Origin: Polyangiaceae bacterium
GTDB taxonomy: Bacteria; Myxococcota_A; Polyangia; Polyangiales; Polyangiaceae
Direction: 5' to 3'
Assembly: GCA_046351325.1 (NCBI GenBank)
Contig: JAXLYR010000002.1
Span: 624,334-688,333, forward strand
Length of the DNA stretch: 64,000 bases
Shown here: piece by piece, positions 3,509 through 61,223 of the stretch
How positions within the stretch are numbered: the stretch's first letter is position 1
Layout of the letters: every line of letters begins with the position of its first letter
Program-made: the position numbers and the translations under genes
The notes under the pieces: generated by a model
The model's input: only the letters and a program-made list of their open reading frames with translations
Told to the model about the DNA's origin: nothing
The model's database searches: none

Positions 3509-4996
3509 TTATTTCCCGCCGAAGCTCGGGCCGATGAAGATACCGCCGCCGCCCCCGTCGCCGTCGCAGTCGAGGACGAAGAAGAGGACGAGGAGGGCGA
3601 TGACAGCCAGCACCGTGATCAACGTGCGGCTGACCCCCGACGAAGAGGTTCCGCCCCCGGGCGTGGAGAACATCGCGGGGCTCGGTGGCGGCGCGATGTT
3701 GAAAGATCGCCCGAGCTCGGCGGCCGACAGCGGCCAGCAGAACGACGCGTTGGTCTCGTTCTGATCCGACTCGACGCTGAGGATGCCGTCGGGCCCTTTG
3801 TACTCGGTCGCCTGGACCTCCTCGCCGACCTGGACCTTCCAATAGAGCTCACCGACGACGTACTCGACGCGCGCACGGACGCTCTGTTTGAAGGTGTATC
3901 GCTTTCCTTGATACGTGTAAAAGCTACCCATCTGCTGGGCCTCGCCGGGAGGGACAGGCCCGGCGAGCTGCCAGTGGCCGTCCTCTTCGGTCAGCCACAC
4001 GTAGCCGTCGCGTGGGCCCGCGTAGCAGAGGTACTCGCGCCAGGCGTAGTGCTCGCCCTCGACCCACGTGCCGCGCACGAGGAACGCGATGCAGATGACG
4101 CGACGGCCGCGGAGCGTTCCCTCTGCGCCGAGCGGGATGAACGGCGTCACTGGCGGGCGAGGCGCCTGACCCAAAGCGGACAGCGCACCCGACTTGGCGA
4201 CGTCGCTGATCGTCCCGCAATACCGGCACACGAGCCGCTCGGTTGTCCCGGGCGCGACGAGAGGCAGGCTGCCGCCGCAACCCGGGCAAGAGCAGGCCTC
4301 GACCTTGGCTTGCGGTGCTTCGACCGACTGCCCCGAGTCGAGGCGCAGCGTCGTCGGGTCGAACTGCTGGCCGACGTACAGCGTGGGGGGCACCGATTGG
4401 CCGTCGCCGAAATCGATCGTGCCGAAGACCCCGCCAGGGCCTCCGAAGTCTGCGTAGGGCGTGACCGCGCCGGGGACTGCGACGTTCGGCAGCTCACCCT
4501 CGGCGGAGACGACGCGTCGCCGTCCGACCTCGGCGATCGTCACTTGGCCGACGTTCGGCAGACCGATGACCTGGCCAGGACGGAGCGCGCCGAACGCAGG
4601 GAGCGGCAGCGCCTGTCCCGCGGGCGCGACGACCTCGCGCGTGAAGTACCAGCGGCCCTGCGCGAACGCGACCCAGAAGCCCTCACCGGTCGCTGGGATG
4701 CCGACGTAGAACTCCTGCCAGGGCGCGCTCGCGGCGCCGACGCGGTCGAGCTGCACTCGACCCTCGACCTCGAAGCGGCGATTGCCCCATTGCCCCATCA
4801 CCCCGAGCGCGAGGGGCGAGGGGATCTCCACCAAATCCGCGACGCGTCCGACGGCCGCGAAGCCGCGATCGGTGCGCGCCACCAGGAATTTGCAGAACTT
4901 GCAAACCTGGGCCCGCGCACCCGCGAACTTGAACGTCATCGGGCCCCCGCAATTGGGGCATTCGGCCTTACGGTCGAACGGCGATGACCCTGTCAC
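3509..4996 (-). CDS. DUF4178-like protein with two zinc-ribbon (CxxC..CxxC) motifs and a C-terminal TM anchor
   Basis: Zinc ribbons CPNCGG..CKFCKF and CPGCGG..CRYCG. Repeated W(R)EY(L)..GY.WLTEEDGHW motif that I recognise as DUF4178. Hydrophobic C-terminus ITVLAVIALLVLFFVL. Its stop lies 9 nt upstream of the substrate-binding-protein start, so it is probably co-transcribed with the ABC operon. Confidence 0.6.
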   Translation of the reverse strand: MTGSSPFDRKAECPNCGGPMTFKFAGARAQVCKFCKFLVARTDRGFAAVGRVADLVEIPSPLALGVMGQWGNRRFEVEGRVQLDRVGAASAPWQEFYVGIPATGEGFWVAFAQGRWYFTREVVAPAGQALPLPAFGALRPGQVIGLPNVGQVTIAEVGRRRVVSAEGELPNVAVPGAVTPYADFGGPGGVFGTIDFGDGQSVPPTLYVGQQFDPTTLRLDSGQSVEAPQAKVEACSCPGCGGSLPLVAPGTTERLVCRYCGTISDVAKSGALSALGQAPRPPVTPFIPLGAEGTLRGRRVICIAFLVRGTWVEGEHYAWREYLCYAGPRDGYVWLTEEDGHWQLAGPVPPGEAQQMGSFYTYQGKRYTFKQSVRARVEYVVGELYWKVQVGEEVQATEYKGPDGILSVESDQNETNASFCWPLSAAELGRSFNIAPPPSPAMFSTPGGGTSSSGVSRTLITVLAVIALLVLFFVLDCDGDGGGGGIFIGPSFGGK

Positions 4997-10171: not shown

Positions 10172-10747
10172 TCAGGGTTTGCCGGCCGTCATCTCGACGA
10201 CACACGTCAGGTCGGAGACCCAGGTCGCGGCCTCGATGCCCTTGCCGATGCACGCCGCCGCCGCGGCGTCGGGCGCGCCGGCTACTTTGATGTCAGTGGC
10301 CTTCTTGTCTTTGATGGTGAAGGCCACGCGTACGGTGGTCGGAGCCGCCGAACACCCCTCGAACGTCGGCTTCTGTTTGGCGAGCGGCGCGAGCAACCCG
10401 ACGACCGCGAAGGGGTTCGCGTTGGGCGCTTTGCACACGACGTGCTTCATTTTGAAGCCGTTTGCTTCAACGTCGTTCATGTCGATGTTGGCGCCCTCGA
10501 GTTTGTCGGGCACGTCGCTCGGCGGGGCCGCAGGGCTCGGCGCGGACGCCGACGCCGGCGCGGAGGACCCAGAAGAGCCTGGCGCCGACGAGGTCGCGCC
10601 GCTCGCTCGGGCGCTCGCAGCGGAGCCCGTGCTCTTCGCCGTACCGCTCGCCGAGGACGCGGATGGCTTCTCGTCCCCACAGGCCAAAAGGAACGTGGCG
10701 AACATCGCGAGGGCGAGGTAGCGCCGTGGGCGGTAAGCGTGCTTCAT
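10172..10747 (-). CDS. hypothetical lipoprotein with a Ser/Ala-rich linker
   Basis: Start taken at the internal M (MKHAYRPRRYLALAMFATFLLACGDE), which gives a signal peptide plus lipobox. Low-complexity AS-rich linker followed by a structured C-terminal domain. Confidence 0.5.
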   Translation of the reverse strand: MKHAYRPRRYLALAMFATFLLACGDEKPSASSASGTAKSTGSAASARASGATSSAPGSSGSSAPASASAPSPAAPPSDVPDKLEGANIDMNDVEANGFKMKHVVCKAPNANPFAVVGLLAPLAKQKPTFEGCSAAPTTVRVAFTIKDKKATDIKVAGAPDAAAAACIGKGIEAATWVSDLTCVVEMTAGKP

Positions 10748-10828
10748 CGCGCGGAGGATACAGTCGATGGGCGCGACGTGCGCGGCCACTTTCCCCGAGT
10801 ACGATTGAGCCCTATCGGACGAGTGCAC

Positions 10829-11848
10829 ATGAGCCAGACTTCAGCGTTGCCCAGCCGTCTCGAGCGATGTGTCGCTGCCTTCTTGGGCCTTGCGATCGGA
10901 GACGCATATGGCCGCCCGCTCGAGTTCATGGGGGGAGACGAAGTCCGCCGCAGCGCCGTCGACGTGCGACGCGGGGACTCCAATTGGAGCCTCAAATCGT
11001 GGAGCGGCGCGCTCGCCCTGCCGCCATTCCGTTGGACGGACGACACTCATATGGCGCTCTATCTCGCCCGCGCCGTCCAGTCTTGCGCTCTGGCCTTCGA
11101 CGACGATGCTTTTGGCCGCGCGGTGGGTGAGGCCTTCATCGCGTGGGCCGAGGACCCGCTCATGCCGTTTACCGCTCCCGGCAACACCTGTCTCGCAGGC
11201 GTATCCGCCTATCGGCATGGGCGCGATTGGCGGACCTCGGGCGTCGCGACCTCGGATGGATGCGGCGCTGTCATGCGGATCGCGCCGCTCGCGATGGCCT
11301 ATTCCAATTCGGTGCTCACCCGCGCGGCCGACATCTCCTCGCGGGTCACGCACGCGCACCCGAACGCGCGTGAGGCCGCGATCGCCGCGAGCCACATCCT
11401 CGCGTGGGTCCTCGACGGTTCGTCACTCGACGCAACGCTCCTCCATCGCGCGGTCGCGCACCTCGACAGCGCGCACCCCGAGAGTTGGAGTCGTGGGGGT
11501 GACGTCGCGCGCTCGCTCGTGACCGCGCTGGACCTCGCGATCGACACAACGTCGCAATGGCTCGACGACGCGAGGGTCTGGCCCGGCGACGGTGGTTGGC
11601 GCTCGGGCAGCGCCCTCGGCCTCGCGCTCGCGGCAGCGCTCCGCTGGCAGAGCGACGCGCGGCTCGCCATCGACCGCGCGGCGCGGATCGACGGGGACAG
11701 CGACAGCGTCGCATGCCTTACAGGAATGTTCCTCGGGGCAACGGGCGGGCTCGCCGCGCTCCCACCCCATCTCGTCGCCGCGACGATGGCGCGCGAGGAG
11801 ATCGAAGAGGTCGCGCTCGCTTGTGGTCGGCTCCACGACGGCGCGTGA
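10829..11848 (+). CDS. ADP-ribosylglycohydrolase family protein (DraG/ARH-like)
   Basis: Motifs GLAIGDAYGRPLEF, WTDDTHMAL and RITHAHP are typical of the ADP-ribosylglycohydrolase fold. Start chosen at the internal ATG (MSQTSALPS); the track ORF 10094..11848 has an implausible Arg-rich N-terminus. Confidence 0.8.
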   Translation: MSQTSALPSRLERCVAAFLGLAIGDAYGRPLEFMGGDEVRRSAVDVRRGDSNWSLKSWSGALALPPFRWTDDTHMALYLARAVQSCALAFDDDAFGRAVGEAFIAWAEDPLMPFTAPGNTCLAGVSAYRHGRDWRTSGVATSDGCGAVMRIAPLAMAYSNSVLTRAADISSRVTHAHPNAREAAIAASHILAWVLDGSSLDATLLHRAVAHLDSAHPESWSRGGDVARSLVTALDLAIDTTSQWLDDARVWPGDGGWRSGSALGLALAAALRWQSDARLAIDRAARIDGDSDSVACLTGMFLGATGGLAALPPHLVAATMAREEIEEVALACGRLHDGA

Positions 11849-11861
11849 TAGACCTCCTCGG

Positions 11862-12317
11862 GTGCGGGTCATCTTCTTGGACTTCGACGGCGTGCTCAAC
11901 AGCGACGCCTTCTTCGAGCGTCTCGGGCCCGTGTCGGATTGGGACTCTCGGCTCGACCCGGACGCCGTCGCCCGGCTGAATCGGCTCGTCGCTGCGACCC
12001 AAGCCAAGATCGTCGTGTCGTCGACTTGGCGCTACGACAAGTCCGTCCCCGCGCTCGCGCGCATCCTCGCGGACTTCGGGTTTGTCGGTGAGGTCATCGG
12101 CGCGACGCCGGTGATCTCGGGCCCGCGCGGCCGTGAGATCCAAGCTTGGCTCGACGACGACCAGAGCTGGCGCTCTTATGTCATCCTCGACGATCGCGAC
12201 GACATGGGCTCCTTGAAGAAGCGGCTCGTCCAGACCCAAGAGGCTCACGGACTGCTCGACGAACACCTCGAGCAGGCGACGCGCTGGCTCGAGCGCCGCG
12301 TGTTCTTCCGCTGGTGA
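11862..12317 (+). CDS. HAD-superfamily phosphatase-like protein
   Basis: HAD motif I at the N-terminus (RVIFLDFDGVLNS), SSTWR for motif II, ILDDRDD for motif IV. The GTG start lies 14 nt after the ADP-ribosylglycohydrolase stop. The upstream part of the track ORF is in another frame's junk. Confidence 0.6.
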   Translation: MRVIFLDFDGVLNSDAFFERLGPVSDWDSRLDPDAVARLNRLVAATQAKIVVSSTWRYDKSVPALARILADFGFVGEVIGATPVISGPRGREIQAWLDDDQSWRSYVILDDRDDMGSLKKRLVQTQEAHGLLDEHLEQATRWLERRVFFRW

Positions 12318-12829
12318 GCGAGGCGTATGCTCCGCTCGTGTCCCCCGATCCCGCCCCCGACGCTGACCACGCTGTAAACGCTAGGGCCGTGTGTGCGCGC
12401 GCGCGCGTGGGCGCGCTCTCGACGCTGGCCCGCGAGCCCGCAGGGTTTCCCTACGGCTCTATCGTGGAGCTCGCCTTCGACGAGCGCGGGCGTCCCATCC
12501 TCCTCTTGTCGCGCCTCGCGGAGCACACCCAGAATTTGCTCGCGCGCCCCGAGGCTTCGATTGTCGTCTTCGACGCCAAGAGTGAGAGCGTCATGGCGAG
12601 CGCCCGCGTCACGCTGCTCGGGCCGTGCGCCCCCATCCTCGAGCCGAGCGAGGCTCGCGCCGCGCGTGAGCTCTACCTCGCGGCGCACGCGAACGCCCGT
12701 GTGTATGCCGACTTCGCGGACTTCGGATTTTATCGGCTCGAGCCTGTCGCTATCCGGTATATCGGCGGCTTCGGCAAGATGTCGTGGGTCTCGAGCGAGG
12801 CCTACTCCTCCAAGACCGGCATTTCTTGA
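12314..12829 (+). CDS. pyridoxamine 5'-phosphate oxidase-like FMN-binding split-barrel protein (PNPOx-like/HugZ-like)
   Basis: A GTG start overlaps the HAD gene's stop (GTGA). The pattern GFPYGSIVELAFDERGRPILLLSRLAEHTQNL...SARVTLLG is PNPOx-like. Confidence 0.5.
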   Translation: MSEAYAPLVSPDPAPDADHAVNARAVCARARVGALSTLAREPAGFPYGSIVELAFDERGRPILLLSRLAEHTQNLLARPEASIVVFDAKSESVMASARVTLLGPCAPILEPSEARAARELYLAAHANARVYADFADFGFYRLEPVAIRYIGGFGKMSWVSSEAYSSKTGIS

Positions 12830-12831
12830 AG

Positions 12832-13788
12832 CTACGCCAGCGGGCCCACCCTCAAGACGACGAGATCGTCGTGTGAGCTCGGATCGACAGTGACATCGCT
12901 GTCACTGATTCTCAGCGCGCCGGCATCGTCAGCGAACCATTTCGAGAGGCGCTTCACCGCGACGCCCCCGTACCCCGCGCGCACGTGGATGAAGCCGCCC
13001 GGGCGCGTGACGCGGACGAGCGCCTGCCAGACTGCGCGTTCGTCGTCCTCGTCGAGGTGGCAGAGGAGCCAGCCTGAAGTGACAACGTCGTAAGCCTTGC
13101 TGTCGAGCGCCGAGAGGGTGCGCGCGTCGTCGAGGTGGCGCCGGCCGCTTACGCGAGGGTAACTGTCCGCGACGGCGCCGGCGCACGCAGAGACCCGAGC
13201 GAGTATCCCGCGCTCGTCGTCGCTGAGGTGATAGCGCGGGTCGACTTCGGCGTTGGGCAGGGCGCACGTGGACCAACACGAGAGGCGCTCGAGCTCGCGC
13301 GCGTAGCGGCCGCGCGCGTGCGCCGCCGCCTGCGCGTAGGCCGGGTGCTCCTCACCGAAGACGCGATCGACAGTGTCGACGTGCGCGCCGAGCGCGCTGA
13401 GCTCCGTCGGGAAGATCGAGAGGCCTGTGGCGACGTCGAGCCAACGCGCGCCTCGGTCGAAGAGCGGCGCGCGCGCGAGGACGCCGAGCGACGCGATCGT
13501 GTCGAAGTCCCAACGCGGCAGCCCCCAAGATCGCGTGAGCGAGTCGCGGACGGGCTCGGCCGAGTGCTGCACCTCGAGGTGCCGATCCAAAAAGAGTCCG
13601 CGCATCGTGACCGTGACCCGCGCTCTCGCGACGGGCTCGGTCGCGTCGGAGTCCTGGGACGGCTCGGAGCTCCCGAGCGCCTCGAGGTCGAGCGGGCTCC
13701 TGCCGCGATACGCTGCTGCTGGGTCCGAGCGCTCCGCGCGCAGCGGGCAATCGGCGCTGTGCGTGCACTTCACCCCGGCGTCATCCAT
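12832..13788 (-). CDS. class I SAM-dependent methyltransferase
   Basis: Motif I-like segment (ARWLDVATGLSIFPTELSALGAHVDTVD) and a post-I acidic segment (VVTSGWLLCHLDEDDE). The true start may be the internal M (MRGLFLD, about 13605). It is convergent with the PNPOx-like gene. Confidence 0.6.
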   Translation of the reverse strand: MDDAGVKCTHSADCPLRAERSDPAAAYRGRSPLDLEALGSSEPSQDSDATEPVARARVTVTMRGLFLDRHLEVQHSAEPVRDSLTRSWGLPRWDFDTIASLGVLARAPLFDRGARWLDVATGLSIFPTELSALGAHVDTVDRVFGEEHPAYAQAAAHARGRYARELERLSCWSTCALPNAEVDPRYHLSDDERGILARVSACAGAVADSYPRVSGRRHLDDARTLSALDSKAYDVVTSGWLLCHLDEDDERAVWQALVRVTRPGGFIHVRAGYGGVAVKRLSKWFADDAGALRISDSDVTVDPSSHDDLVVLRVGPLA

Positions 13789-13828: not shown

Positions 13829-14743
13829 TCAATTGTCGCAGCCGATGCGATTGGCGTCGTACGCGAGCTCGTCGAGCCAAACCGTGAAGCCCGCGCCTGC
13901 ATCTTGGTAGTTGGCGAGGCCGACCCCCAGACTCTGGAATATCGGGATCTCGGCCGCGTGGTTCGCGCCGGGCACGATCGGGATCTCGGCGCCGTCGATC
14001 CAGAGCGTCCCGTCTTGGCTCGGCTGGTCGTACATCCACTCGATGCACTGCCAGGAGCCCTGCCAGTCATAGACGTAGTCCGTGCCCTCGGCGAACTCGG
14101 GCGCGCCGTTCGAGGGTTGAACGTTGTAGATCCATTGGAGCTTCATCGAGGTGTTCTCGACGACGCCCCAGCGGACATTGTGTGTGCTGCCGTTCGGCCC
14201 GGGCCCGAGCCCTTCGATGAAGTCCGCGTGCAAAACACCTGAGCTCGGCCACGGCGCGGGCACCTGGACCTTCATGAACACGCGGCCGTAATGATGTGAC
14301 GCGAGCGCGCCGAGGTCGCCCTTGAAGTCCATGAAGTGCTGGCCGTTGCTCTCGCCGTCGACCTTCAGGCTCTTCAGTCCGCGGCGAGCGTCGTCGCTCG
14401 CGACTCCGATGACCCCGCCGCCCCACTCGTCGCCGCGCGCGCCCCAGCCCACAGGGAACGCTCCGTCGGCCGCGTCCTCGAAGCCCTCGCAGATGGCGAA
14501 GTTGCCATTGCCACACTTCGAGGCGTTGCTGTCGCCGCCGCCGCCAGTCTGCGAGGTGCTCGTCGACGTCGACGTTTGCCCGCCAGTCCCGGGCGCGCCG
14601 CCGCTCTGTGCGCTACCGCCCGAGCCCCCCGCGGGGCCGCCCGCTGCGCCCGCGCCGCTGCCGCCCCCGCCCGTGGCGTCGTCGCCACATCCGAACCAGG
14701 TGAACAGCCCAGCGAGGAGCACCAGAGTCGCGCGCGCTTGCAT
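13829..14743 (-). CDS. secreted hypothetical protein (lipoprotein-like), possible concanavalin/glycosyl hydrolase-like beta-sandwich
   Basis: Signal peptide MQARATLVLLAGLFTWFGCGDD, Gly-rich linker, Trp/Tyr-rich C-terminal domain. The alternative start (MKSRG) would be 14764. Confidence 0.5.
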   Translation of the reverse strand: MQARATLVLLAGLFTWFGCGDDATGGGGSGAGAAGGPAGGSGGSAQSGGAPGTGGQTSTSTSTSQTGGGGDSNASKCGNGNFAICEGFEDAADGAFPVGWGARGDEWGGGVIGVASDDARRGLKSLKVDGESNGQHFMDFKGDLGALASHHYGRVFMKVQVPAPWPSSGVLHADFIEGLGPGPNGSTHNVRWGVVENTSMKLQWIYNVQPSNGAPEFAEGTDYVYDWQGSWQCIEWMYDQPSQDGTLWIDGAEIPIVPGANHAAEIPIFQSLGVGLANYQDAGAGFTVWLDELAYDANRIGCDN

Positions 14744-14760
14744 ATCGAGGCCCCTGCTCT

Positions 14761-16149
14761 TCATGCCTTGAGTTGATCGAACTCGCCGTCTTCGCCGAGG
14801 TTGGGATCCCCGAAGTGGGTCTCGGGTACGCCCATCGCGTTGCACAGCGTCGTAAGCAGCTTGTTGTGGGGGGCGTCAGCGTCGTTGCGCGTATCGGCTT
14901 GAGCGGTGACCTTCACGTACTCACCCTGTTTGAAGTAGCCATTGCAGCCGCCCGCGATGACGACCGGCAAATCACGGAAGTCGTGGTCTTTGCCGTGGGA
15001 GAGCTCGTTCATGAAGACGACGGCCGACTTGTCGAGGACGCTGACGCCGGCCTCTTCATAGGCGTCGAGCTTCGACAGGAGATAGGCATATTCGGTCGCG
15101 TACCAATGGTCGATGTCGAACAGCATGTCCTCGTAGCCGGGGACGTCGCCACCCGAGTTGTCGTCTTTGGTGTTTCCGTGAGAGAGCTTGTGGTGATTGT
15201 ATTGGTGGCTCATCCCGTCCCACGTGAAGATCGGGCCGCCCGCGCCGGAGCCCCACATCATGGTCGCGACCCGGGTCGCCCCGCACGCGATGGCCAGCGC
15301 CAGCACATCCATCTGGAGGCGTCCGACTGTGCGGTAGTCCGAGTCGTTCTGCACAGTGTCGGGGTTGATGCCGTCGAGCTCGGCCTCGGTCCCGGGCGGG
15401 AGCTTGCACTGGATGCTGCCGTTGATGCTCGTCTCGAGGTCACGCACGACGTCGAAGTGCTGTTGGAGCTTCGTCCTGTCGGCCGTGCTCAGCTTGCGCG
15501 AGAGCAGATATTGATATTCACCCTGCACGAGATCGAGCACGCTCTCGCGGCGCGCGGTGAGGCGCGCGAGCTCCTCGTCGCCGAGGTTCCCGAGGCCCAC
15601 CATATCGAGGTAAGCGAGGCGCGGGTTGCTCTCGGCGGTTACAGGTTGGTTACTGCCGGTATAGGAGATATGTCCGAGCACGCCGCTCGCGCGCCAGCCT
15701 GCCATGAGCGCCAGTGCGGGCTTGCCGTCCGCGTTGACGCTCTTCGCGATGTGCTGATCGACCGAGATGCCGTCCGCGTAGACCGAGCCCTCGATGAGCG
15801 GCCTCGCGGTGAGCTTGCAGCCCATGCCCTTCGCGTGGTCGTCGCCCGCCGAGGCATCCCACCCGAAGCCGCGCGGCGACATGTGCATACCGCGCGGGAT
15901 GAGCAGGCGATTCGCGTACGGCGCGAGCGGCGCGAGCGCGCACTCGCTCGTAAAGGAGCCCTCGCTGAGGGCGCCGTAACCGACGTTCGGCCACCAGCGG
16001 TCCATGTTCACGCCGTTGCAGCAGAAGAATACGATGAGGCGCGAGTCGCTCGCGCCCTCGGCGGACGCGACCTTCGGCTTGAGCGACTCGAGGAAGGGCA
16101 GACACAAGGTCGCGCCGAGCGCACCCCGCAAGAATAGGCGCCTCTTCAT
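14761..16149 (-). CDS. DUF1552 family protein (Planctomycete-type) with Tat-like signal
   Basis: Start at the internal M (MKRRLFLRGALGATLCLPFL, RR motif). I recognise the sequence as DUF1552. Its stop overlaps the upstream DUF1592 gene's stop region, and it forms an ATGA overlap at 16146-16149. Confidence 0.75.
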   Translation of the reverse strand: MKRRLFLRGALGATLCLPFLESLKPKVASAEGASDSRLIVFFCCNGVNMDRWWPNVGYGALSEGSFTSECALAPLAPYANRLLIPRGMHMSPRGFGWDASAGDDHAKGMGCKLTARPLIEGSVYADGISVDQHIAKSVNADGKPALALMAGWRASGVLGHISYTGSNQPVTAESNPRLAYLDMVGLGNLGDEELARLTARRESVLDLVQGEYQYLLSRKLSTADRTKLQQHFDVVRDLETSINGSIQCKLPPGTEAELDGINPDTVQNDSDYRTVGRLQMDVLALAIACGATRVATMMWGSGAGGPIFTWDGMSHQYNHHKLSHGNTKDDNSGGDVPGYEDMLFDIDHWYATEYAYLLSKLDAYEEAGVSVLDKSAVVFMNELSHGKDHDFRDLPVVIAGGCNGYFKQGEYVKVTAQADTRNDADAPHNKLLTTLCNAMGVPETHFGDPNLGEDGEFDQLKA

Positions 16150-17846
16150 GGCGTGATCTCCTCTGCGATCCGGAAGCGGAAGGTCTTGGTCTGGGTGAAC
16201 GCGACGAGCATCTCGCCGATGTTGTAACCGCCGGACGCGAGCTTCTCCTCGAGCACACCCATCGTGCACTCGTCAGCGTCGCTCTCCTGTCGCGCGAACG
16301 CGTAGCGATACCACTGTCGCATATAACAAGCGCCCCCCGACTCGCTCTCCGCGATCTGGTTCACGAGGTCGATGGGGCCGTCCACTGCGACGCTCTCGCC
16401 GTCGATCTTGAAGGTGCCAGTCGGGTCGACGGGCTCGCCGTTCTCGGTGGTTCGATAGGCGCCTACGCCGTCGAAGTTCTCGAGCGCATAACCGGGCGCG
16501 TTGATGATCGAGTGACAGCCGGTGCAGCCCGCGGGCGAGGTGTGCGCCTCGACTGCTTGTTTCGTCGTCTTGATGTTCTCGTCGAAGGGCGGGAGCGTCG
16601 TATCGACGTTACCGGGCGGGTCCCCGATCGTGGTGCAGAGGACGCGGCGCTGGACGAACACGCCGCGGTGAATGGGCGACGAGCCGACGGTATAAGCGTG
16701 AGACGCCAAGAAGCCGACCTGCGTGAGGAGCCCTGCGCGCTGGGTCGGGTCGAGCTCGACCTCTACGAAGTCGGGGCCGAACGTCCCTGACAGCCCGTAA
16801 TAGGGAGCGAGCTTGTCGTTCACGAACGTCGTCCGCGAGAGCATCAGCTCGCGGAAGCCGCCCTCGAGTTCGAACGCGACGTGCCGGATGAAGCGCTGCG
16901 TCTCCTCCTTCATCGCCGCGTCCGTGGAGGCGTCGAAGCCGGGATAAACCGACGCGTCCTTTTGAACGTTGTCATAGCGAGCGAGCTGCAGCCACTGGGC
17001 GTGGAAGTCGTCGATTGGACCCTTCGCGCGGGGGTCCGCGAGCAGCCTACGCGCGGCGCTCTCGACGCCCTCGGGCGTGTCGAGCGCGCCCGAGGCCGCC
17101 GCGTCGAGGAGCGCGTCGTCCGGCGTGCTGTTCCAGAGCAGATAAGAGAGCCGCGTCGCGATCTCGAAGCCGGTGAGGGGAATGAGCTTGTCGCTGTCGA
17201 GCTCCTCGGAGAGCTCCACGCGATAGAGGAAGTTCGGCGACTGGAGGAAGGCCTCGATGACGTGGCGAATGCCCTGTTCGAACGGGGTCCCCGAGGCGAA
17301 CTTGCCGTCGCCGCGGCCGTAGAGCGCGAGGTAAGCGGCGGACTCGTCGGTCGTCAGCGGCCGGCGATAGACGCGCCGCCCGAAGTCACGAATGAAGTCT
17401 GTCGCGCAGGCCTCGTCGCCGAGCGACACGTCGCAGGGCACGACGGGGGCGAGGAGCGTCGGGTCCGCGAGCAAGTCGGCGAGCGCCTCGGCGGCGCGTT
17501 GATAGTCGTGCGCGAGGCGCTCGGAGACGACGAGCCCGTCGGCGCTGTTGTCGAAGCCGGCGAACACCGGATCATCGATGAAGTCTTTGCTCGGCGTGAG
17601 GCCCTCGATCTCGAGCAGATCGCTCACCGAGGCGTCGTATTGGCTGTGCGTCAGCCTGACGAGGCGCGGGCGAGGCCCAGGGAGATCGCCTGTCTCGCAG
17701 AGGCCCTCGGTGTCGGGACCGGGGGGTTTGATCGTGTCGGGCTCGTCATCACAGGCGCCGAGCCCGAGGCCGAGACCTCCTATCAGGGTCCATCGGACAA
17801 CGCTGCTCAGGACTGGAATTCTCCAGTATCGGTGGGCTCTGCCCAT
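16146..17846 (-). CDS. DUF1592/DUF1588 family protein with a CxxCH heme-binding motif
   Basis: Start at the internal M (MGRAHRY...) with a strong RBS (GGAGGTGAcc). Signal peptide, a CTGCH motif, and a Planctomycete cytochrome-like context. It is the partner of DUF1552. Confidence 0.75.
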   Translation of the reverse strand: MGRAHRYWRIPVLSSVVRWTLIGGLGLGLGACDDEPDTIKPPGPDTEGLCETGDLPGPRPRLVRLTHSQYDASVSDLLEIEGLTPSKDFIDDPVFAGFDNSADGLVVSERLAHDYQRAAEALADLLADPTLLAPVVPCDVSLGDEACATDFIRDFGRRVYRRPLTTDESAAYLALYGRGDGKFASGTPFEQGIRHVIEAFLQSPNFLYRVELSEELDSDKLIPLTGFEIATRLSYLLWNSTPDDALLDAAASGALDTPEGVESAARRLLADPRAKGPIDDFHAQWLQLARYDNVQKDASVYPGFDASTDAAMKEETQRFIRHVAFELEGGFRELMLSRTTFVNDKLAPYYGLSGTFGPDFVEVELDPTQRAGLLTQVGFLASHAYTVGSSPIHRGVFVQRRVLCTTIGDPPGNVDTTLPPFDENIKTTKQAVEAHTSPAGCTGCHSIINAPGYALENFDGVGAYRTTENGEPVDPTGTFKIDGESVAVDGPIDLVNQIAESESGGACYMRQWYRYAFARQESDADECTMGVLEEKLASGGYNIGEMLVAFTQTKTFRFRIAEEITP

Positions 17847-25461: not shown

Positions 25462-27753
25462 CTATTGCGGCGCCCAGCCAGTCTCGTAGTGGCCGTCTTC
25501 GAAGACCCATATCCGCGCGTCGGCGGGCAAAGGCCCGCTGACCTCGACGACGGCGCCCCCTGGGAAGCGGACCTCGACCGACTCCACGGCTGACGCGGCG
25601 CCCAGGCCGTAATGCAAATAGGCAGAGTCCTGGCCGCCTTTGCCGTTGCCGCCGGAGACGACCCGCAGCTGGGTCACGCCGCCCGCCGTGAGCCAAACGG
25701 TCGCGCCGACGGCCGCGCGATTGGAGGCTACGTTGCCCACGACCTTGACCTCGGCGAAATGGCCAGTCTGCGACTTGGCATTTCGGAAGGGGTAGCGGAG
25801 GAAGGTGTCGACGTCCCCGTCGTTGTCGAAGTCCGAAGTCGAGATGCCCCAGCCGTTCTCGGTCGTGAGGCCCGCGTGGTATGCGTCGAGGCGGAAGGTG
25901 CCGTCGCCGTTACCCCAATAGAAGTCCGTCGGGCGACCGTCGTACACGGCTGTAATCACCAGATCGAGGCGACCGTCATTGTCGAAGTCGGCGAGCGCTG
26001 GGACCGAGTGCGTCTCTTGGTAGCGCAGGCCGGCAGGGTTCGTGAGGTCGGTCGTCTCCGCGAGGTTCACGAACGAGCCGTCCGGCTGTTGGAGCAGGAT
26101 CTCCGTGCGGTCCGAGAAGTCGAAGAAGCGCGGGTGCGCGAGGTTGGCCGACACGAGATCGAGCCGAAGATCGCCGTCGAGATCCCCCCACGCCGCGCCG
26201 ATGGTGTGCCCGTAGTAGCCGCTCGAAAGCGAGCCCGCAGCGCCGAGGGCCTTCGCCGACTCGACGAAGGTGCCGTCCCCCTGATTGACGAATAGGAAGT
26301 TGGCCTGGAGTCGGTAGTTGTTGACGAAGAGGTCCACGTCGCCGTCTCCGTCGTAGTCGGCGGGAGCGGCGCCGCGGCTCGCCGTGCGCTTCGAGCTGAA
26401 GCCGTACTGTGCTGTCCAGCTCTCGAAGGTCCCGTCGCCGCGGTTGTGCCAGACCTCGTCCTCGTAGAAGGTCTCGTTTGCCCAGCAAATGAAGTTGGCG
26501 AGGTAGAGGTCGAGGTAACCGTCCGCGTCGAGGTCGAGCCACGCGGCCGCGGCCGTGGGTGAGCGGGTGTTGAGCGCAGGGTCGCCGCAGCTCTCGTAGG
26601 TTTGTGTGTCCACGATCCCGCTCGCAGGGGTCGCGTCCTCGAAGGTGCCGTCGCACCGCGAGCGCATCAGCTTGTCGGGTTTGTCGTAGGCCTCGGCGTA
26701 GAGGAAGACGTCGAGACAGCCGTCGTTGTCGTAGTCGCCGAAGACGCCGCCCGTGGCGGCGATGGGAGCGCCCACTGCGTCGGTCGCGACGAGGCTCGCC
26801 GCGGTGACCTCGGTGAAGGAGCCGTCGCCGACGTTCTTGTAGAGCCGCGGCCCTGATCCCAATACGTCGTCATAGCCATCCGCATCGTAATCGCCAAACG
26901 AGACGTGCTCGGAGGGCGGGAAGGCCGGGTCCGTAATCTGGAATACACGCGCCGCGGGGTCGACCTCCTCGGTGTGCTCGAGGTGCAAGCGGACGAGGTA
27001 GTCGTATTGGAAGGGGAACGAGACTCCATTGTAGAAGCTCGAGAGGAGGCGCTTCGGCAGGTTCATCGCCGAGTGGCACTCGTCCCAGAGCGCGCAGTCA
27101 CCGGCGCCTTGGGTCGAGCCGTCGAAGTCGAACACCGGACTCCCAGGTTCGGCGAGGTGCGCGACGTAGACCAAGCCCGGGTGCTCGAGGGTGATCGGCG
27201 GGTCGATGACGTAGGTGACCCAGCCGTCCGCGTCGAGGTCACCCGCGCAGCGCGTACCGGTAAAGAGCGGCTCCGCGGCCCAGAAGTCGAAGCCGTTGTA
27301 ACCGAAGTCGGCGTAGAGCCCGGCCGTGAGCTCGGTCTCCGGTGCGAGCCCGTCCACCGCGCCCCAGTGCACCGAGAAGCCGTGGATGACCGAGGGGTGC
27401 TCGACGTCGAAGCGCACGGCCTCGTTGAGCTCTTCGTCGTTGAGGGTGAAGGTCGAGCCGTTCACTGTGATGGAGAACGTCTGCTCTCGGACGTTGGTCG
27501 CGGCGCTCGAGTCGTCCCACGCCAGCGTCTCGAGCCCAGCCGGCAATTCGCCATTCGCCGAGCCACAAACGGGCGCCGCGCCGCCAGCGCCGCCCACGCT
27601 GCCCGTGGATTGGGTGTTTGCGCCAGCGCCCCCAGCACCGCCCGCGTTTGCGCCGCCACCGCCTTGGGGCTGAATCCCGTCATCGCCGCACGCGGCGCCG
27701 AACGCGAGACTGAGGGACAAGACCCAGGGTGAGACCCTACGACGCAAAGCCAT
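25462..27753 (-). CDS. FG-GAP repeat / ASPIC-UnbV (CRTAC1-like) lipoprotein
   Basis: Lipobox LAFGAACGDD, multiple DxDxDG FG-GAP-like repeats, and a C-terminal UnbV_ASPIC-like segment (VGATVWLTAGG..QLRVVSGGNGKGGQDS). Confidence 0.8.
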   Translation of the reverse strand: MALRRRVSPWVLSLSLAFGAACGDDGIQPQGGGGANAGGAGGAGANTQSTGSVGGAGGAAPVCGSANGELPAGLETLAWDDSSAATNVREQTFSITVNGSTFTLNDEELNEAVRFDVEHPSVIHGFSVHWGAVDGLAPETELTAGLYADFGYNGFDFWAAEPLFTGTRCAGDLDADGWVTYVIDPPITLEHPGLVYVAHLAEPGSPVFDFDGSTQGAGDCALWDECHSAMNLPKRLLSSFYNGVSFPFQYDYLVRLHLEHTEEVDPAARVFQITDPAFPPSEHVSFGDYDADGYDDVLGSGPRLYKNVGDGSFTEVTAASLVATDAVGAPIAATGGVFGDYDNDGCLDVFLYAEAYDKPDKLMRSRCDGTFEDATPASGIVDTQTYESCGDPALNTRSPTAAAAWLDLDADGYLDLYLANFICWANETFYEDEVWHNRGDGTFESWTAQYGFSSKRTASRGAAPADYDGDGDVDLFVNNYRLQANFLFVNQGDGTFVESAKALGAAGSLSSGYYGHTIGAAWGDLDGDLRLDLVSANLAHPRFFDFSDRTEILLQQPDGSFVNLAETTDLTNPAGLRYQETHSVPALADFDNDGRLDLVITAVYDGRPTDFYWGNGDGTFRLDAYHAGLTTENGWGISTSDFDNDGDVDTFLRYPFRNAKSQTGHFAEVKVVGNVASNRAAVGATVWLTAGGVTQLRVVSGGNGKGGQDSAYLHYGLGAASAVESVEVRFPGGAVVEVSGPLPADARIWVFEDGHYETGWAPQ

Positions 27754-27798
27754 AATCGGGATTGTCGTCGCTTTGTCGGCGCCTGGCGAGGAGCTCGC

Positions 27799-36484: not shown

Positions 36485-37993
36485 ATGCCCAATTCCAGAC
36501 TCCGCCTCCGATATGCCGCCTCGACGCTCATGGTCGGGGCGTTTGCTCTCTTGTCCGCTTGTGGCGACGACGGCTCCTCCAATGGGGGTGGCGGTGAGAG
36601 CGCCGGGGGCGCGGCCGAGGGTGGGACGGGCGGCCAACCCGACGGCGGAATGGGTCAGACTGGCGGCTCGGGCGGCGCGCCCTCGACGGGTGGCGTCGGT
36701 GGGATAGGCGGTCAGGGCGGGGAGGGGGGCGCTCCCATACCGACCTATTCGATTGGAGGCTTGGTGACCGGCCTGGCTGGTACGGGCCTGGTGCTCGAGA
36801 ACAATGGCGGCGACGATCTCGCTGTCGATCAGGCCGGCCCTTTCACCTTTGCGACCGAGCTCCTCGAAGGCGACGACTACGACGTCAGCGTCCTCACCCA
36901 GCCCACCGAGCCGTGGCAGACCTGCACCGTGTCGAAGGGCGCGGGGCCCGTCGGCACCGCCGACGTCATCGACGTTCAGGTCGACTGCACGACGGATACG
37001 CACACCGTCACGGTCGACGTCTTCGGCGTCTATGGGACGGGCCTCGTCCTGGAGAACAACGGCGCTGACGACCTGCCGATCCCCCAGGATGGTAGCTACA
37101 CGTTCTCCACCGCGATCCCCTCGGGCCAAAACTGGGACATCAGCGTCGCGACGGCGCCGACTGGGCCCGCCGAGACGTGCAACATCGATCAGGCGCAGGG
37201 GACGATGGGTGGGCAGGACATTCACCTGACCGTGCTCTGCGAGCTCGTCGACTCCGACGCGGACCACATCCCGGACCTCTTCGACCCGTTCCCGAGCGAT
37301 CCGACGGCGCCTGCGCCTACCATCGCCGGCGTCTACGCGCACACGTCCTCGCAGCTCTTCACGATGGATCCTGTCACGTACGCCGTCTCGCTGATTGGCA
37401 GCTTCACCGGGGTGAACGGGCAGATCACCGACATCGCCATCGATCGGTACGGCGTCTTGTACGCGGTCTCCTTCAGCGCGCTCTTCGTGTGTGATGCCTC
37501 GACGGCGGCTTGTTATCAGCTCGCGACCCTGCCCTCGAGCTTCAACGGGCTCACCGTGGTGCCGGCCGGTACGGTCGACCCGAATTTCGAGACCATCGTC
37601 GGGATCGCAAACTCGGGTAACTGGTACGCCGTTAATCTCACCGGGACGGGTTCGGCCACGGTCACGCAGATCGGGGCCTACGGTAACGGCTACTCGTCGA
37701 CCGGTGATGCTTACTCGATTGTAGGCGTTGGGACTTACGGCGCTGTCAACAAGCCGGGCGCGTCGTCCACGGTGATCGTGTCCGTCGACCCCGCGACCGG
37801 CACCGCGCTGAACGAGGTCGGTGAGGTCACCGGCTACACGACCATCTACGGATTGGCGGGTTGGCAGAGCGAAATCTTCGCGTTCAACTCGTCGGGGGCG
37901 ATCGTGAGCATCGACCCGATGACGGGGCAACCGACGCTGCTCGCGCAGACGCCCTATTCGTGGTGGGGCGCTGGCGTCTCGACCGAGCTCTGA
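36485..37993 (+). CDS. hypothetical lipoprotein with internally repeated domains
   Basis: Lipobox AFALLSACGDD, a Gly-rich linker, and two similar segments (GLVLENNGGDDL / GLVLENNGADDL). It lies immediately after the giant protein gene. Confidence 0.6.
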   Translation: MPNSRLRLRYAASTLMVGAFALLSACGDDGSSNGGGGESAGGAAEGGTGGQPDGGMGQTGGSGGAPSTGGVGGIGGQGGEGGAPIPTYSIGGLVTGLAGTGLVLENNGGDDLAVDQAGPFTFATELLEGDDYDVSVLTQPTEPWQTCTVSKGAGPVGTADVIDVQVDCTTDTHTVTVDVFGVYGTGLVLENNGADDLPIPQDGSYTFSTAIPSGQNWDISVATAPTGPAETCNIDQAQGTMGGQDIHLTVLCELVDSDADHIPDLFDPFPSDPTAPAPTIAGVYAHTSSQLFTMDPVTYAVSLIGSFTGVNGQITDIAIDRYGVLYAVSFSALFVCDASTAACYQLATLPSSFNGLTVVPAGTVDPNFETIVGIANSGNWYAVNLTGTGSATVTQIGAYGNGYSSTGDAYSIVGVGTYGAVNKPGASSTVIVSVDPATGTALNEVGEVTGYTTIYGLAGWQSEIFAFNSSGAIVSIDPMTGQPTLLAQTPYSWWGAGVSTEL

Positions 37994-59443: not shown

Positions 59444-59866
59444 ATGGCTGAGACGCTCACCGAGGAAGAGAAGCTCACGTTCGCCGGGTTGATCCGGGTG
59501 CTGGTTCGCCTCGACGGCTCGTTCAACGACGCGGAGCGCGCAGCGATCGAGGCGATCGGTGTCGAGCTGCTCGCGAGCACACCCGAGGCTTCGCCTTATC
59601 GCGACACCGTCGTCCCCGAGGACGGCGACGACGCGCCGCCCGCGACCGCCGAAGACGCCGTGTGGGATTGGATCGACCTCGCGGGTGAAGAGTGCTCCGG
59701 CGACGAAGCCGTGAAGAAGGCGGTGCTCGCGACCACCCGTCGTGAGGCGCAGCTCGCGATCTACGAGGCGCTCGAGGAGATCGCGGAGTCCGACTCGATT
59801 AGCGAGGGCGAGCTCACGCTGCTCGAGTTCGTTCGGACCGCGTGGAACATCCCCGCGGCCGAGTGA
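59444..59866 (+). CDS. TerB-like (tellurite resistance TerB / DjlA N-terminal-like) domain protein
   Basis: Pattern EKLTFAGLIRVLVRLDGSFNDAERAAIEAI. A small acidic protein. Confidence 0.45.
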   Translation: MAETLTEEEKLTFAGLIRVLVRLDGSFNDAERAAIEAIGVELLASTPEASPYRDTVVPEDGDDAPPATAEDAVWDWIDLAGEECSGDEAVKKAVLATTRREAQLAIYEALEEIAESDSISEGELTLLEFVRTAWNIPAAE

Positions 59867-61223
59867 TCGCCCGCGTGACGCGTTCGTGGTGATCGAGCGC
59901 GGTCGGGCCCCAGGACGTACGCGAGACAGGCGCCCCGACGAGCTCCTCGATGCGCGCTAGGAAGCGCTCCGCGGCGGGGTCGTCGGCGTCGCAAAAGGCA
60001 GGCAGCGCCTCGTAGCTGGGCCGCACGTGGGCGAGCCGCTCGGTGAAGGCCGCGCGCGCCGCGAGGTCGGCGACCTCGCCCGGAGCGAGGTCGAGGTCGT
60101 ACGCGACGGCGACGCGCAGAGGTGCGGTCGCGCCTCTTCGAGCGAGTCGATCGAGGCACGAGATCGCGAGCTCGCAGCCAGCCAATCCAGCCGCTGCGCA
60201 GGCGCTACGAAATGCGTAGCGCGCCGCGACCGCGTCGAACCAGCCCACGCGGAACGCGCCCTGGTAGCGGTGCGTGCCGTTGTGGAGCTCGGGGAGCTCG
60301 AGCTCGCGAGCCTCGGTCGGGAAGGGGCCCGCGCCGTGGCGCGTCGCGTACGCGCGCAAGACGCCGATGCAGCGCGGAGCGGGCAGGTGAGCCTCGCGCG
60401 CGAGCTCGAGCGCGTTCGCGAAGCCCGTGCGACTCGGCGTCACGTGGGGAAAGAAGCCGTAGTCGCGATCGAGGAGCATGCCTTGCGCGCCCTCGAAGAC
60501 GACGTGCTCTCCGGCCCCGAGTGGGACCTCACGAGTGACCTCCACCGAGCGCGCGAGGGCGATCAAAGCAGAAGCGAAGCGGCTCGGGAGGTCGCGATCG
60601 CGAAGGGCTGCGAGCTCTGTTTCGAGCTCTGTTTCGAGCGCGGGATCGAGTTCGGTCGCGCGCGCTGCGAGCAGCTGCTCGGCGAGGTCGAGCTTCATTC
60701 GGGCGAGCAAGGTGAGCTTGCGCACGAGCGCGCCCTCGTCGGCCGCGTCAGCGACGGTCACGGTGGGGAGCGCGCCCCGCTCCGCGTCGAGCAGCGCCTC
60801 GCCGACACCGAGGCCCACGCTGCCGTGTCGCGCCGCGCCCCGCGTGAGCTCGCGCACGCGGTTCATCGCGCGATGCGCGGGCGTCACGACGACGCAGCGC
60901 GGATCGAGGTGGAGTCGTTCGCGTGCGTCGTCGACGCCGAGGTCCGCGAGCACCGCAAGCTCACGCGCGAGCGCGAGTGGCTCGAGCGCGACGAACCGCG
61001 AGAGGAACGTGCGCACGCGAGGCACGAACGTCCCCGCGCCGAGCTGCGCGAAGCAGTGCATCCGCCCATCCGCTGTGACGACGTGGTGCGCGGCCTGCGG
61101 CCCGCCGTTGAATCGGACCACAAGCGACGCGCCCTCTTCGCGCACGAGCGCGTCGACGAGCGCGCCCTTCCCCTCGTCGCCGAACCCGAGGCCTGCGACG
61201 ACCCACGCGCTACTGCGATGCAC
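59814..61223 (-). CDS. purA: adenylosuccinate synthetase
   Basis: P-loop GFGDEGKGALVD near the N-terminus and a PurA-length C-terminal part. GTG start (VHRSSAWVVAGLGF). The track ORF 59814..62240 is a read-through of this frame into Arg/Ser-rich junk. Confidence 0.8.
   Translation of the reverse strand: MHRSSAWVVAGLGFGDEGKGALVDALVREEGASLVVRFNGGPQAAHHVVTADGRMHCFAQLGAGTFVPRVRTFLSRFVALEPLALARELAVLADLGVDDARERLHLDPRCVVVTPAHRAMNRVRELTRGAARHGSVGLGVGEALLDAERGALPTVTVADAADEGALVRKLTLLARMKLDLAEQLLAARATELDPALETELETELAALRDRDLPSRFASALIALARSVEVTREVPLGAGEHVVFEGAQGMLLDRDYGFFPHVTPSRTGFANALELAREAHLPAPRCIGVLRAYATRHGAGPFPTEARELELPELHNGTHRYQGAFRVGWFDAVAARYAFRSACAAAGLAGCELAISCLDRLARRGATAPLRVAVAYDLDLAPGEVADLAARAAFTERLAHVRPSYEALPAFCDADDPAAERFLARIEELVGAPVSRTSWGPTALDHHERVTRAITRPRGCSTRSERTRAA

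Follow-up and report, generated by a model that had tools for sequence, protein, structure and literature searches.

The window, by which we mean the whole 64,000-nucleotide stretch of Polyangiaceae DNA that was analysed, carries adjacent genes for an ADP-ribosylglycohydrolase (ARH) and a phosphatase of the HAD superfamily. We consider these to make up a two-gene ‘ARG-centric’ ARH-phosphatase module, with a HugZ-like split beta-barrel protein that happens to share the transcript (rough probability 0.6). The catalytic motifs of the two enzymes are intact and their folds confidently modelled, and in the clade of the ARH, non-homologous phosphatases are time and again fused to the enzyme or encoded next to it, in exactly the position that the HAD gene takes here. 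In the proposed mechanism the binuclear-metal ARH would cleave the glycosidic bond joining ADP-ribose to a macromolecular acceptor; an ADP-ribosyltransferase (ART) encoded elsewhere, such as a phage enzyme or the toxin of a competitor, would earlier have modified that acceptor. The co-expressed capless HAD would take a phosphate off the same adduct or off the released ADP-ribose derivative. We infer that the HAD substitutes functionally for the PTP-SAK phosphatases and metallophosphatases of the relatives, and the substrate and defensive role of the pair are put forward on the same footing. The locus is a new example of an ARG-phosphatase pairing that had already been predicted; in other respects it is an ordinary genomic observation. 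The features discussed below are the following:

10748..10828, no strand: probable divergent intergenic/promoter region, placed tentatively from the ORF translation and the sequence
10829..11848, + strand: ARH (ADP-ribosylglycohydrolase, ARH/ARG fold), 339 aa, from PF03747
11849..11861, + strand: spacer of 13 nt between the ARH stop and the HAD start, from the sequence
11862..12317, + strand: capless HAD-superfamily phosphatase, HAD_SAK_2, 151 aa, from PF18143
12314..12829, + strand: HugZ/HOZ-like split beta-barrel protein lacking DUF2470, from PF13883 and PNPOx_N
12832..13788, - strand: convergent methyltransferase-like gene, context outside the module, from weak partial Pfam matches

ORF calls together with the sequence placed the ARH, HAD and split-barrel genes tightly packed on the + strand, as the original prediction had it. 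The ARH gene runs from an ATG at 10829 to a TGA at 11846-11848, and its product of 339 aa has the length of the NCBI model (P0121). The gap to the HAD gene is 13 nt and not the 14 nt that had been claimed, and the HAD gene extends from a GTG at 11862, a start that agrees with the N-termini of 35 homologues (M-[RK]-[VI]-hFLDFDGV), to a TGA at 12315-12317. A predicted GTGA overlap of the HAD and barrel genes is possible but not established: the HAD TGA shares bases with a GTG at 12314-12316, from which a barrel protein of 171 aa would be read, whereas the NCBI model (P0241, 163 aa) starts from a GTG at 12338, about 20 nt past the HAD stop, and removes the overlap. Homology does not settle the choice, since in the alignment similarity begins only at around residue 18 of the barrel.

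Upstream of the ARH, a divergent ORF formally occupies 10172-10828 on the - strand. A Met near 10747 is more likely to be its start (MKHAYRPRRYLALAMFATFLLAC, lipoprotein-like), in which case about 81 nt of intergenic DNA would separate it from the ARH. No sigma-70-like promoter was detected in the 10748..10828 region, and Rfam, promoter and terminator scans of 8-16 kb gave nothing useful. At the other end of the three genes, the predicted SAM methyltransferase is indeed convergent, with a stop codon 2 nt from that of the barrel gene, but the Pfam matches behind its functional assignment are weak and cover only part of the protein (Methyltransf_11, E=2.4e-6, residues 219-267). This gene was not seen beside ARH orthologues, and a weak match to PADLOC mad2 (E=5e-5) was discounted.

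The assignment of the first gene to the ARH/DraG fold was borne out by a strong match to PF03747 (ADP_ribosyl_GH, E=5e-54) and by Foldseek comparison of its AlphaFold model (pLDDT 93.2), which gave TM-scores of 0.70-0.77 to 2cwc, Tri1, DraG, ARH1 and ARH3 at 18-27% identity. The metal-binding motifs T70-D71-D72-T73 and G289-D290-S291-D292-S293 are intact, and invariant across 25 orthologues. Membership of a Tri1-, DraG- or DarG-like group, which had also been suggested, did not hold. DraG (2woe/2woc, E~3e-16) and Tri1 (E=6e-14) are among the best PDB sequence matches, but the NCBIfam scores fell far under their cut-offs, at 87.5 bits against 337 for DraG (TIGR02662) and 71 bits against 490 for Tri1 (NF041672). 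An alignment with Tri1 begins only at Tri1 residue 68. The ARH lies outside the housekeeping DraG clade, and no DraT/nif context and no adjacent ART were found. DraG and Tri1 are arginine-specific enzymes, and the catalytic Asp of both is replaced by Ala in the window ARH, where Ala116 aligns to DraG Asp97. DarG is a macrodomain with a fold distinct from that of ARH enzymes, and no DarT is present.

As read from the arrangement of genes, the link between ARH and HAD is supported from the ARH side only. When the 120 top ARH homologues (47-63% identity) were inspected, many proved to end in a PTP-SAK/Tc-R-P or Metallophos domain. A set of 38 non-redundant orthologue loci could be evaluated (ARH identity 44-64%), and in 23 of them (61%) a phosphatase was fused to the ARH or encoded directly downstream of it (18 fused, 5 separate genes), the type being PTP-SAK in 12 cases and a metallophosphatase in 11. 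In each of the four closest orthologues with readable downstream DNA (P0122 and P0123, 62% identity; P0127, 60%; P0129, 58%), a separate PTP-SAK gene follows immediately 3' of the ARH gene. The two genes overlap by 4 nt at the ARH stop in three of them, and at the fourth locus (L028), where the contig ends and the PTP-SAK start alone is visible, that start lies 2 nt past the stop. This is the position held by HAD_SAK_2 in the window, 13 nt downstream of the ARH. Because ARH orthologues repeatedly carry a fused or adjacent phosphatase, the ARH and its phosphatase very probably work together; the phosphatase is nonetheless dispensable, since 15 of the 38 loci have no recognisable one downstream. 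The ARH/HAD_SAK_2 pairing itself was absent from all 38 loci and was seen only in the window. Genes of defence type (GmrSD, NERD helicase, BrxC/D-like, SIR2_2 and WCX) occur near the ARH orthologues. A Pfam census of 122 predicted neighbours found no enriched family and no Nudix/WYL signal, with scattered helicase, STAND, PARG and methylase matches and a single RtcB.

The second gene had been described as a HAD phosphatase with an N-terminal DxDGV motif, which proved correct and could be narrowed to a capless HAD_SAK_2 protein (PF18143, E=5e-31, score above the Pfam cut-off). The four HAD motifs (I-IV: DxD, S/T, K/R, DD) and the Rossmannoid fold of that family are present, and the capless architecture resembles that of phosphatases acting on macromolecules. 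The idea that this gene might be a pseudo-ORF, raised when the locus was first annotated, was rejected on the strength of motifs that do not vary across the family alignment (D7xD9GV, S54, R89, D110-D111), of a GC3 of 0.85, comparable to that of neighbouring genes, and of an AlphaFold model with a pLDDT of 95.7. All of the homologues are single-domain proteins. In a HAD-side sample of about 110 loci (1 metagenome, 23 genome, 4 closest-homologue and 80 IMG/VR loci and two annotated phages), HAD_SAK_2 genes had no consistent partner or conserved neighbour, and neither an ARH nor the barrel gene stood beside any of them.

A class of systems of this kind has been described by Iyer, Burroughs, Anantharaman & Aravind (2022, Viruses 14:1977, section 3.8; PMC9503650), and is itself a computational prediction only. 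ARG domains without a linked ART were found to be coupled, by fusion or adjacency, to R-P, calcineurin-like, HD or HAD phosphatases in >55% of cases, and the predicted role of these ARG-centric systems is the reversal of foreign ADP-ribosylation (PMC9503650). The original idea of a reversal or immunity module came close to this published prediction of reversing externally imposed ADP-ribosylation. ARG-phosphatase modules have been put forward as the first systems of hosts whose dedicated task is to undo the ADP-ribosylation that viruses or competitors impose. The published HAD partner is named ‘HAD superfamily 5' nucleotidase’ and may or may not equal HAD_SAK_2 (PMC9503650). The identical pattern of partner domains suggests that the window ARH belongs to the same ARG clade as the published examples.

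The features that define the class can be recognised in the window: an ARG/ARH domain with a predicted catalytic metal site (PF03747, TDDT and GDSDS motifs, fold), an adjacent phosphatase in the form of HAD_SAK_2, and no coupled ART or sirtuin. Scanning of about 55 ORFs across the whole window found no ART/SIR2 Pfam match, adjacent or distant, nor any other ADP-ribose enzyme, an absence that is not absolute because several large window ORFs match no Pfam family. A Nudix- or WYL-HTH regulator accompanies >42% of the published systems and is thus not obligatory (PMC9503650); none was found in the window. A weak Zn_ribbon_Nudix match lies in an unrelated DUF4178 protein (3509-4996), and a WCX domain occurs near one ARH orthologue. 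The variable components of the class, namely a chaperone (vWA, SseB, TY-Chap), ARPP and an REase effector (PMC9503650), were not found adjacent to the module. The window does contain vWA genes, at 27.8 kb and 40 kb, but as parts of other systems. The immediate surroundings of the module (Usp, Hsp20, PrpD, DUF1552/DUF1592) do not resemble a defence island, and PADLOC had no model matching the ARH or the HAD.

The chemistry of the pair allows a further, tentative interpretation. PTP-SAK, RLPH2/ApaH-like metallophosphatase and HAD_SAK_2 would all suit macromolecular phosphates and the clade is without the DraG/Tri1 Asp, and for these reasons the module might perform a two-step uncapping of phosphate-linked ADP-ribosylation at RNA or DNA ends, or of macromolecular phosphoribosyl remnants. 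The ARH would strip the ADP-ribose and the phosphatase would then strip the exposed phosphate. Were this to prove true, the module would serve specifically to counter ART toxins that target nucleic acids, a function that to our knowledge is undescribed for any ARH.

Related to this, and similarly unlikely, is a role in nucleic-acid end healing, in which the pair would be an RNA/DNA repair or anti-toxin module and not one for protein de-ADP-ribosylation. The ARH would uncap ADP-ribosylated 5'/3' RNA or DNA phosphates for a SAK-type phosphatase to remove the exposed phosphate, or, in a variant, would process the ADP-ribose phosphates left over when a 2'-phosphate is removed in the Tpt1 or sirtuin manner. 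The associations typical of the Swiss Army Knife (SAK) RNA-repair group were not seen, as no RNA ligase, polynucleotide kinase, Tpt1/KptA, 2H phosphoesterase or other end-healing domain was found in the window. No such family was enriched among the 122 neighbours of ARH orthologues, where RtcB appeared once. The PTP and metallophosphatase domains fused to the orthologues are by sequence closest to protein phosphatases (archaeal PTPs, DUSP23, RLPH2), and the SAK annotations are themselves predictions only.

We regard it as somewhat less likely still that three unrelated genes came together by chance in one transcription unit, the ARH acting alone and the HAD being a free-standing HAD_SAK_2 protein. 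The lack of conserved neighbours around HAD_SAK_2 in about 110 loci, the fact that the pairing was seen in this window alone and the 15 of 38 ARH orthologues without a downstream phosphatase would all fit such an explanation. Phosphatases make up roughly 1-2% of bacterial genes by a rough estimate, however, and as they are rare and the HAD nevertheless sits exactly where 61% of the orthologues and the four closest relatives have one, chance is an unlikely source of the arrangement.

The ARH-phosphatase module, in our preferred reading, leaves the third gene without a part. Its assignment to a PNPOx-like split-barrel fold was correct, and its family is HugZ/HOZ-like. The protein matched PF13883 (CREG_beta-barrel, E=5e-21, 76 bits against a cut-off of 27), and PNPOx_N at the superfamily level only (E=3.5e-10, 40.7 bits). 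It is 51-60% identical to Polyangia ‘HugZ family’ proteins, and its PDB relatives are PA4388 (2arz, E=4e-27), AtHOZ (6m09) and MSMEG_6519 (5bnc). Identity as PNPOx proper (PdxH) was rejected, the best NCBIfam scores being 37 against 225 for HutZ and 19.7 against 79 for Rv1155_F420. The original prediction had the ARH, HAD and barrel carrying out successive steps on ADP-ribose or on some ADP-ribosylated molecule, which we now consider improbable. The shared strand, gaps of no more than about 20 nt, the possible GTGA overlap and the failure to find a terminator-like site between the three genes would be in keeping with such a pathway. Against it, the solved HugZ/HOZ relatives of the barrel bind or degrade heme, and the start in the NCBI model abolishes the overlap. 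The barrel gene was moreover missing from 38 of 38 evaluable ARH-orthologue loci and from all HAD loci examined. Close short homologues of the barrel, at 55-59% identity, have a gene for thymidylate synthase, guanylate cyclase or a sigma factor as a neighbour, unrelated contexts in which neither an ARH nor a HAD was found. A three-step pathway is therefore not supported, because the barrel was found beside an ARH or HAD_SAK_2 gene nowhere else; the gene is probably co-transcribed with the ARH-HAD pair but is no conserved partner of it.

That the ARH is the Tri1- or DraG-like cognate partner of an ADP-ribosyltransferase of the organism itself, such as a T6SS effector, is very improbable, for although DraG and Tri1 rank among its best PDB matches and, some 18 kb away (30950-37993), a VgrG-like gene precedes those of large proteins without annotation, the low NCBIfam scores, the missing Tri1 N-terminal extension, the lack of nif/DraT context and of any ART domain in the scanned ORFs and the Asp-to-Ala replacement all stand against it.

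Several known systems bear comparison with the locus. DraG has the same fold and binuclear-metal motifs and gave the best PDB sequence match, but the window ARH is only 22% identical to it in the structural alignment and has no DraT/nif neighbours. Tri1 shares the fold and, as an ARH, undoes the ADP-ribosylation that a toxin (the T6SS toxin Tre1) has put in place, and enzymes like Tri1 are able to protect even where no cognate toxin is involved; the window ARH is 24% identical to it, with no N-terminal toxin-binding extension and no adjacent ART. The barrel shares the N-terminal split beta-barrel of the HugZ/HOZ family (PA4388, AtHOZ1, MSMEG_6519), but not the C-terminal DUF2470 of the 250-280-aa members. 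SAK RNA-repair proteins and the D. radiodurans operon of ligase, PARG and HD phosphatase/kinase likewise combine an ADP-ribose hydrolase with a phosphatase of end-processing type, represented in the window by HAD_SAK_2, but the window has no ligase, kinase or Tpt1, its proteins come from separate single-domain genes and its hydrolase has the ARH fold and not that of a macrodomain/PARG.

The ARG-centric systems differ from the window locus in several ways. The window version is minimal, without a Nudix/WYL regulator, chaperone, ARPP or nuclease effector, its local context is not defence-like, and its phosphatase is a capless HAD_SAK_2, a pairing unseen in the other sampled loci, that appears to have been swapped in for the PTP superfamily. 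The two enzymes are small, come from separate genes and are modelled with confidence, and the phosphatase is a swapped one, which makes them a convenient pair for biochemistry on the substrate of the ARH, be it a protein, a nucleic acid or a small molecule, and on why a phosphatase is needed. The likeness to these systems is otherwise close: the ARH has no linked ART, and its phosphatase is encoded next to it in tight coupling. Among the orthologues, R-P (PTP-SAK) and calcineurin-like phosphatases replace one another exactly as described for the class, whether fused or adjacent, and relatives of the ARH sit among defence-type genes.

Three closely packed genes were confirmed on the + strand at 10829-12829 of the window, whose G+C content is ~68%:

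ATG 10829 to TGA 11848, + strand, ADP-ribosylglycohydrolase (ARH), 339 aa
GTG 11862 to TGA 12317, + strand, HAD phosphatase (HAD_SAK_2), 151 aa
GTG 12314 or GTG 12338 to 12829, + strand, split-barrel gene (the NCBI 163-aa model uses GTG 12338)

The gap between the ARH stop and the HAD start was measured as 13 nt, and not 14 nt as in the original prediction. The GTGA overlap that had been proposed between the HAD and barrel genes was borne out in so far as GTG 12314 exists and would overlap the HAD stop in this way, but the NCBI model starts at GTG 12338; since homology to relatives begins only at ~residue 18 and fits either start, it leaves the choice undecided. GC3 was 0.82-0.85 across the three genes and similar in their neighbours. 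The expected SAM methyltransferase-like gene (12832-13788, - strand) does converge on the barrel gene, the stop codons being separated by 2 nt; its product matched SAM-methyltransferase models over the C-terminal half only, and in PADLOC it hit the MADS component mad2 weakly (E=4.8e-5). On the upstream side, the ARH gene is flanked by a divergent lipoprotein-like gene and then by a PrpD/MmgE gene.

The first protein was identified as a PF03747 ADP-ribosylglycohydrolase (E=5e-54), and its metal-binding motifs TDDT (70-73) and GDSDS (289-293) were invariant in an alignment of 25 orthologues. Its AlphaFold model (pLDDT 93) superposed on the solved T. thermophilus 2cwc, Tri1, DraG, ARH1, ARH3 and MJ1187 structures with TM scores of 0.70-0.77 at 18-27% identity, and the protein is roughly equally distant from all of them. 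More specifically, Ala116 (codon at 11174-11176, alignment A1) aligned with DraG D97, an Asp located two residues ahead of the G-N-T motif and present in both A. brasilense DraG and Tri1. This alanine was kept in at least 90% of the ARH clade in the same alignment, a substitution which hints at a differing acceptor specificity or mechanism.

Many of the best 120 ARH homologues (47-63% identity) were found to be 480-590 aa proteins with a C-terminal PTP-SAK/Tc-R-P (DSP-PTPase) or Metallophos domain. Among 38 non-redundant orthologue loci with at least 500 nt of downstream sequence, a phosphatase directly followed the ARH domain in 23 (61%), as 18 fusions and 5 separate genes; neither HAD_SAK_2 nor the barrel gene occurred in any of the 38. 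The four nearest orthologues for which downstream DNA was readable (58-62% identity) originate from MAGs of Polyangiales and from metagenome contigs related to them, and each has a stand-alone PTP-SAK gene immediately 3' of ARH. In three of them the two genes overlap by 4 nt at the ARH stop; in the fourth (L028), only the start of the PTP-SAK gene is visible before the contig end. The HAD_SAK_2 gene of the window occupies exactly this position and, from gene order, we read it as a probable in-place, non-orthologous replacement of another phosphatase. The neighbours of these four pairs are defence- or mobile-type genes: GmrSD, a NERD helicase and DUF1016 at L025, a BrxC/D-like gene and a Lhr/Cas3-like helicase at L119, SIR2_2 and WCX domains at L121, and a serine recombinase and ParB at L028. 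The window differs from them, as its module lies among Usp, Hsp20, PrpD and DUF1552/DUF1592 genes and its surroundings are not defence-like. One MAG, GCA_044450585.1, was found to hold two copies of the ARH and PTP-SAK pair.

The best-supported reading of the locus is a two-enzyme module, in which the ARH would hydrolyse the bond between ADP-ribose and its acceptor on a macromolecule modified by an enzyme encoded elsewhere, and the HAD protein would take phosphate off the same adduct or off the released product. Action on ADP-ribosylated nucleic-acid ends is a tentative alternative that we consider unlikely, although several observations keep it in play. Two of the partner phosphatase families take their names from 'Swiss Army Knife' proteins predicted to act in RNA repair. 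An ARH-like enzyme of bacterial origin takes ADP-ribose off the phosphate ends of RNA, and a PARG shares its operon with genes for a ligase and an HD-phosphatase/kinase (PMC11833690). The ARH clade lacks the Asp common to DraG and Tri1, and the partner phosphatase domains are similar to protein phosphatases, namely archaeal PTPs, DUSP23 and RLPH2. Phosphatases make up only ~1-2% of bacterial genes, as a rough estimate, and an adjacency of ARH and HAD due to chance alone is therefore unlikely, somewhat less probable again than the nucleic-acid alternative. HAD_SAK_2 was seen with ARH in no other locus sampled.

The two-enzyme module leaves out the third gene, which had been proposed to complete a three-step pathway. 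The barrel protein matched PF13883/PNPOx_N, and its relatives of solved structure (E=4e-27 to 1e-21) are PA4388, AtHOZ, which is a heme oxygenase from plants, and heme-binding MSMEG_6519. Databases label its other relatives 'HugZ family' or 'heme iron utilization' proteins. Most HugZ relatives carry a C-terminal DUF2470 domain, whereas the 163/171-aa barrel of the window does not. Short homologues (55-59% identity) lie in unrelated contexts, adjoining thymidylate synthase, guanylate cyclase or sigma factor genes. The HAD homologues (the best 120 of 737 all being single-domain) had no ARH or barrel gene within 4-6 kb at any of 24 genome and metagenome loci, beside the two closest homologues (58-59% identity) or at 80 IMG/VR loci, and the trio is not a conserved unit seen from either the HAD or the barrel side. 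Large phages often carry the HAD_SAK_2 family: 296 phage records gave matches, among them T4-like RB43 and RB16 and numerous phages of Klebsiella and Vibrio. These homologues are free-standing (34-38% identity; for example NC_007023.1 142815-143216), every one bears a hypothetical-protein annotation, and the matching PHROG, phrog_1818, is of unknown function. Comparative evidence lends no support to a pathway that takes in the barrel, and such a pathway appears improbable. Lastly, a cognate role resembling that of Tri1 or DraG is very improbable, the NCBIfam equivalog scores lying far under the cut-offs, at 71 against 490 for Tri1 and 87.5 against 337 for DraG; the suggested Tri1/DarG affiliation is not supported.

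Several other features of the window were recorded. At 14761-17627 (- strand), genes of the DUF1552 (HXXSHH) and DUF1592/1588/1595/1585/1587 types form a pair, upstream of which lies a Gly-rich, secreted-looking 311-aa protein with no Pfam match (13829-14764). Three genes in a row at 25462-30761 (- strand) have the appearance of a complete ternary system of the MoxR-vWA-beta-propeller type: they encode a 711-aa FG-GAP/ASPIC beta-propeller, a 439-aa vWA protein and a bpMoxR AAA ATPase (PF20030, E=3.5e-62). At 30950-37993 (+ strand), a VgrG-like gene (30950-32404, Phage_GPD E=1e-61) precedes 1208-aa and 410-aa proteins with no Pfam or PADLOC match, possibly secreted effector cargo; G+C drops to 0.638 at 30-32 kb. 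In a 731-aa ORF (59814-62009, - strand), the adenylosuccinate synthetase domain starts only at residue 270, reflecting either a long N-terminal extension or a wrong start in the crude gene call.

PADLOC holds no model for the ARH or HAD proteins, and the coupling of such glycohydrolases (ARGs) to phosphatases has already been published as a computational prediction. Iyer, Burroughs, Anantharaman and Aravind (Viruses 2022, section 3.8; PMC9503650) described 'ARG-centric' systems, which have no linked ADP-ribosyltransferase (ART) or sirtuin and of which >55% couple a phosphatase, fused or in an adjacent gene, mostly of the rhodanese-phosphatase (PTP) superfamily and otherwise calcineurin-like, HD or HAD. 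Nudix- or WYL-type regulators occur in >42%, and chaperones, ARPP and nuclease effectors are variable parts. These systems are predicted to strip ADP-ribose that viral transferases put on host macromolecules, the phosphatase processing the released ADP-ribose (PMC9503650). The window has none of the optional parts in its scanned ORFs but shares the three core features: an intact ARG, an adjacent phosphatase and no ART among ~55 ORFs. Together with the 23 coupled orthologue loci, this predicted class supports the ARH-phosphatase reversal module of the original prediction. Judged on sequence, the locus is a putative minimal member of the class, and its ARH-HAD pair is tractable for a first biochemical test of ARG-phosphatase systems.
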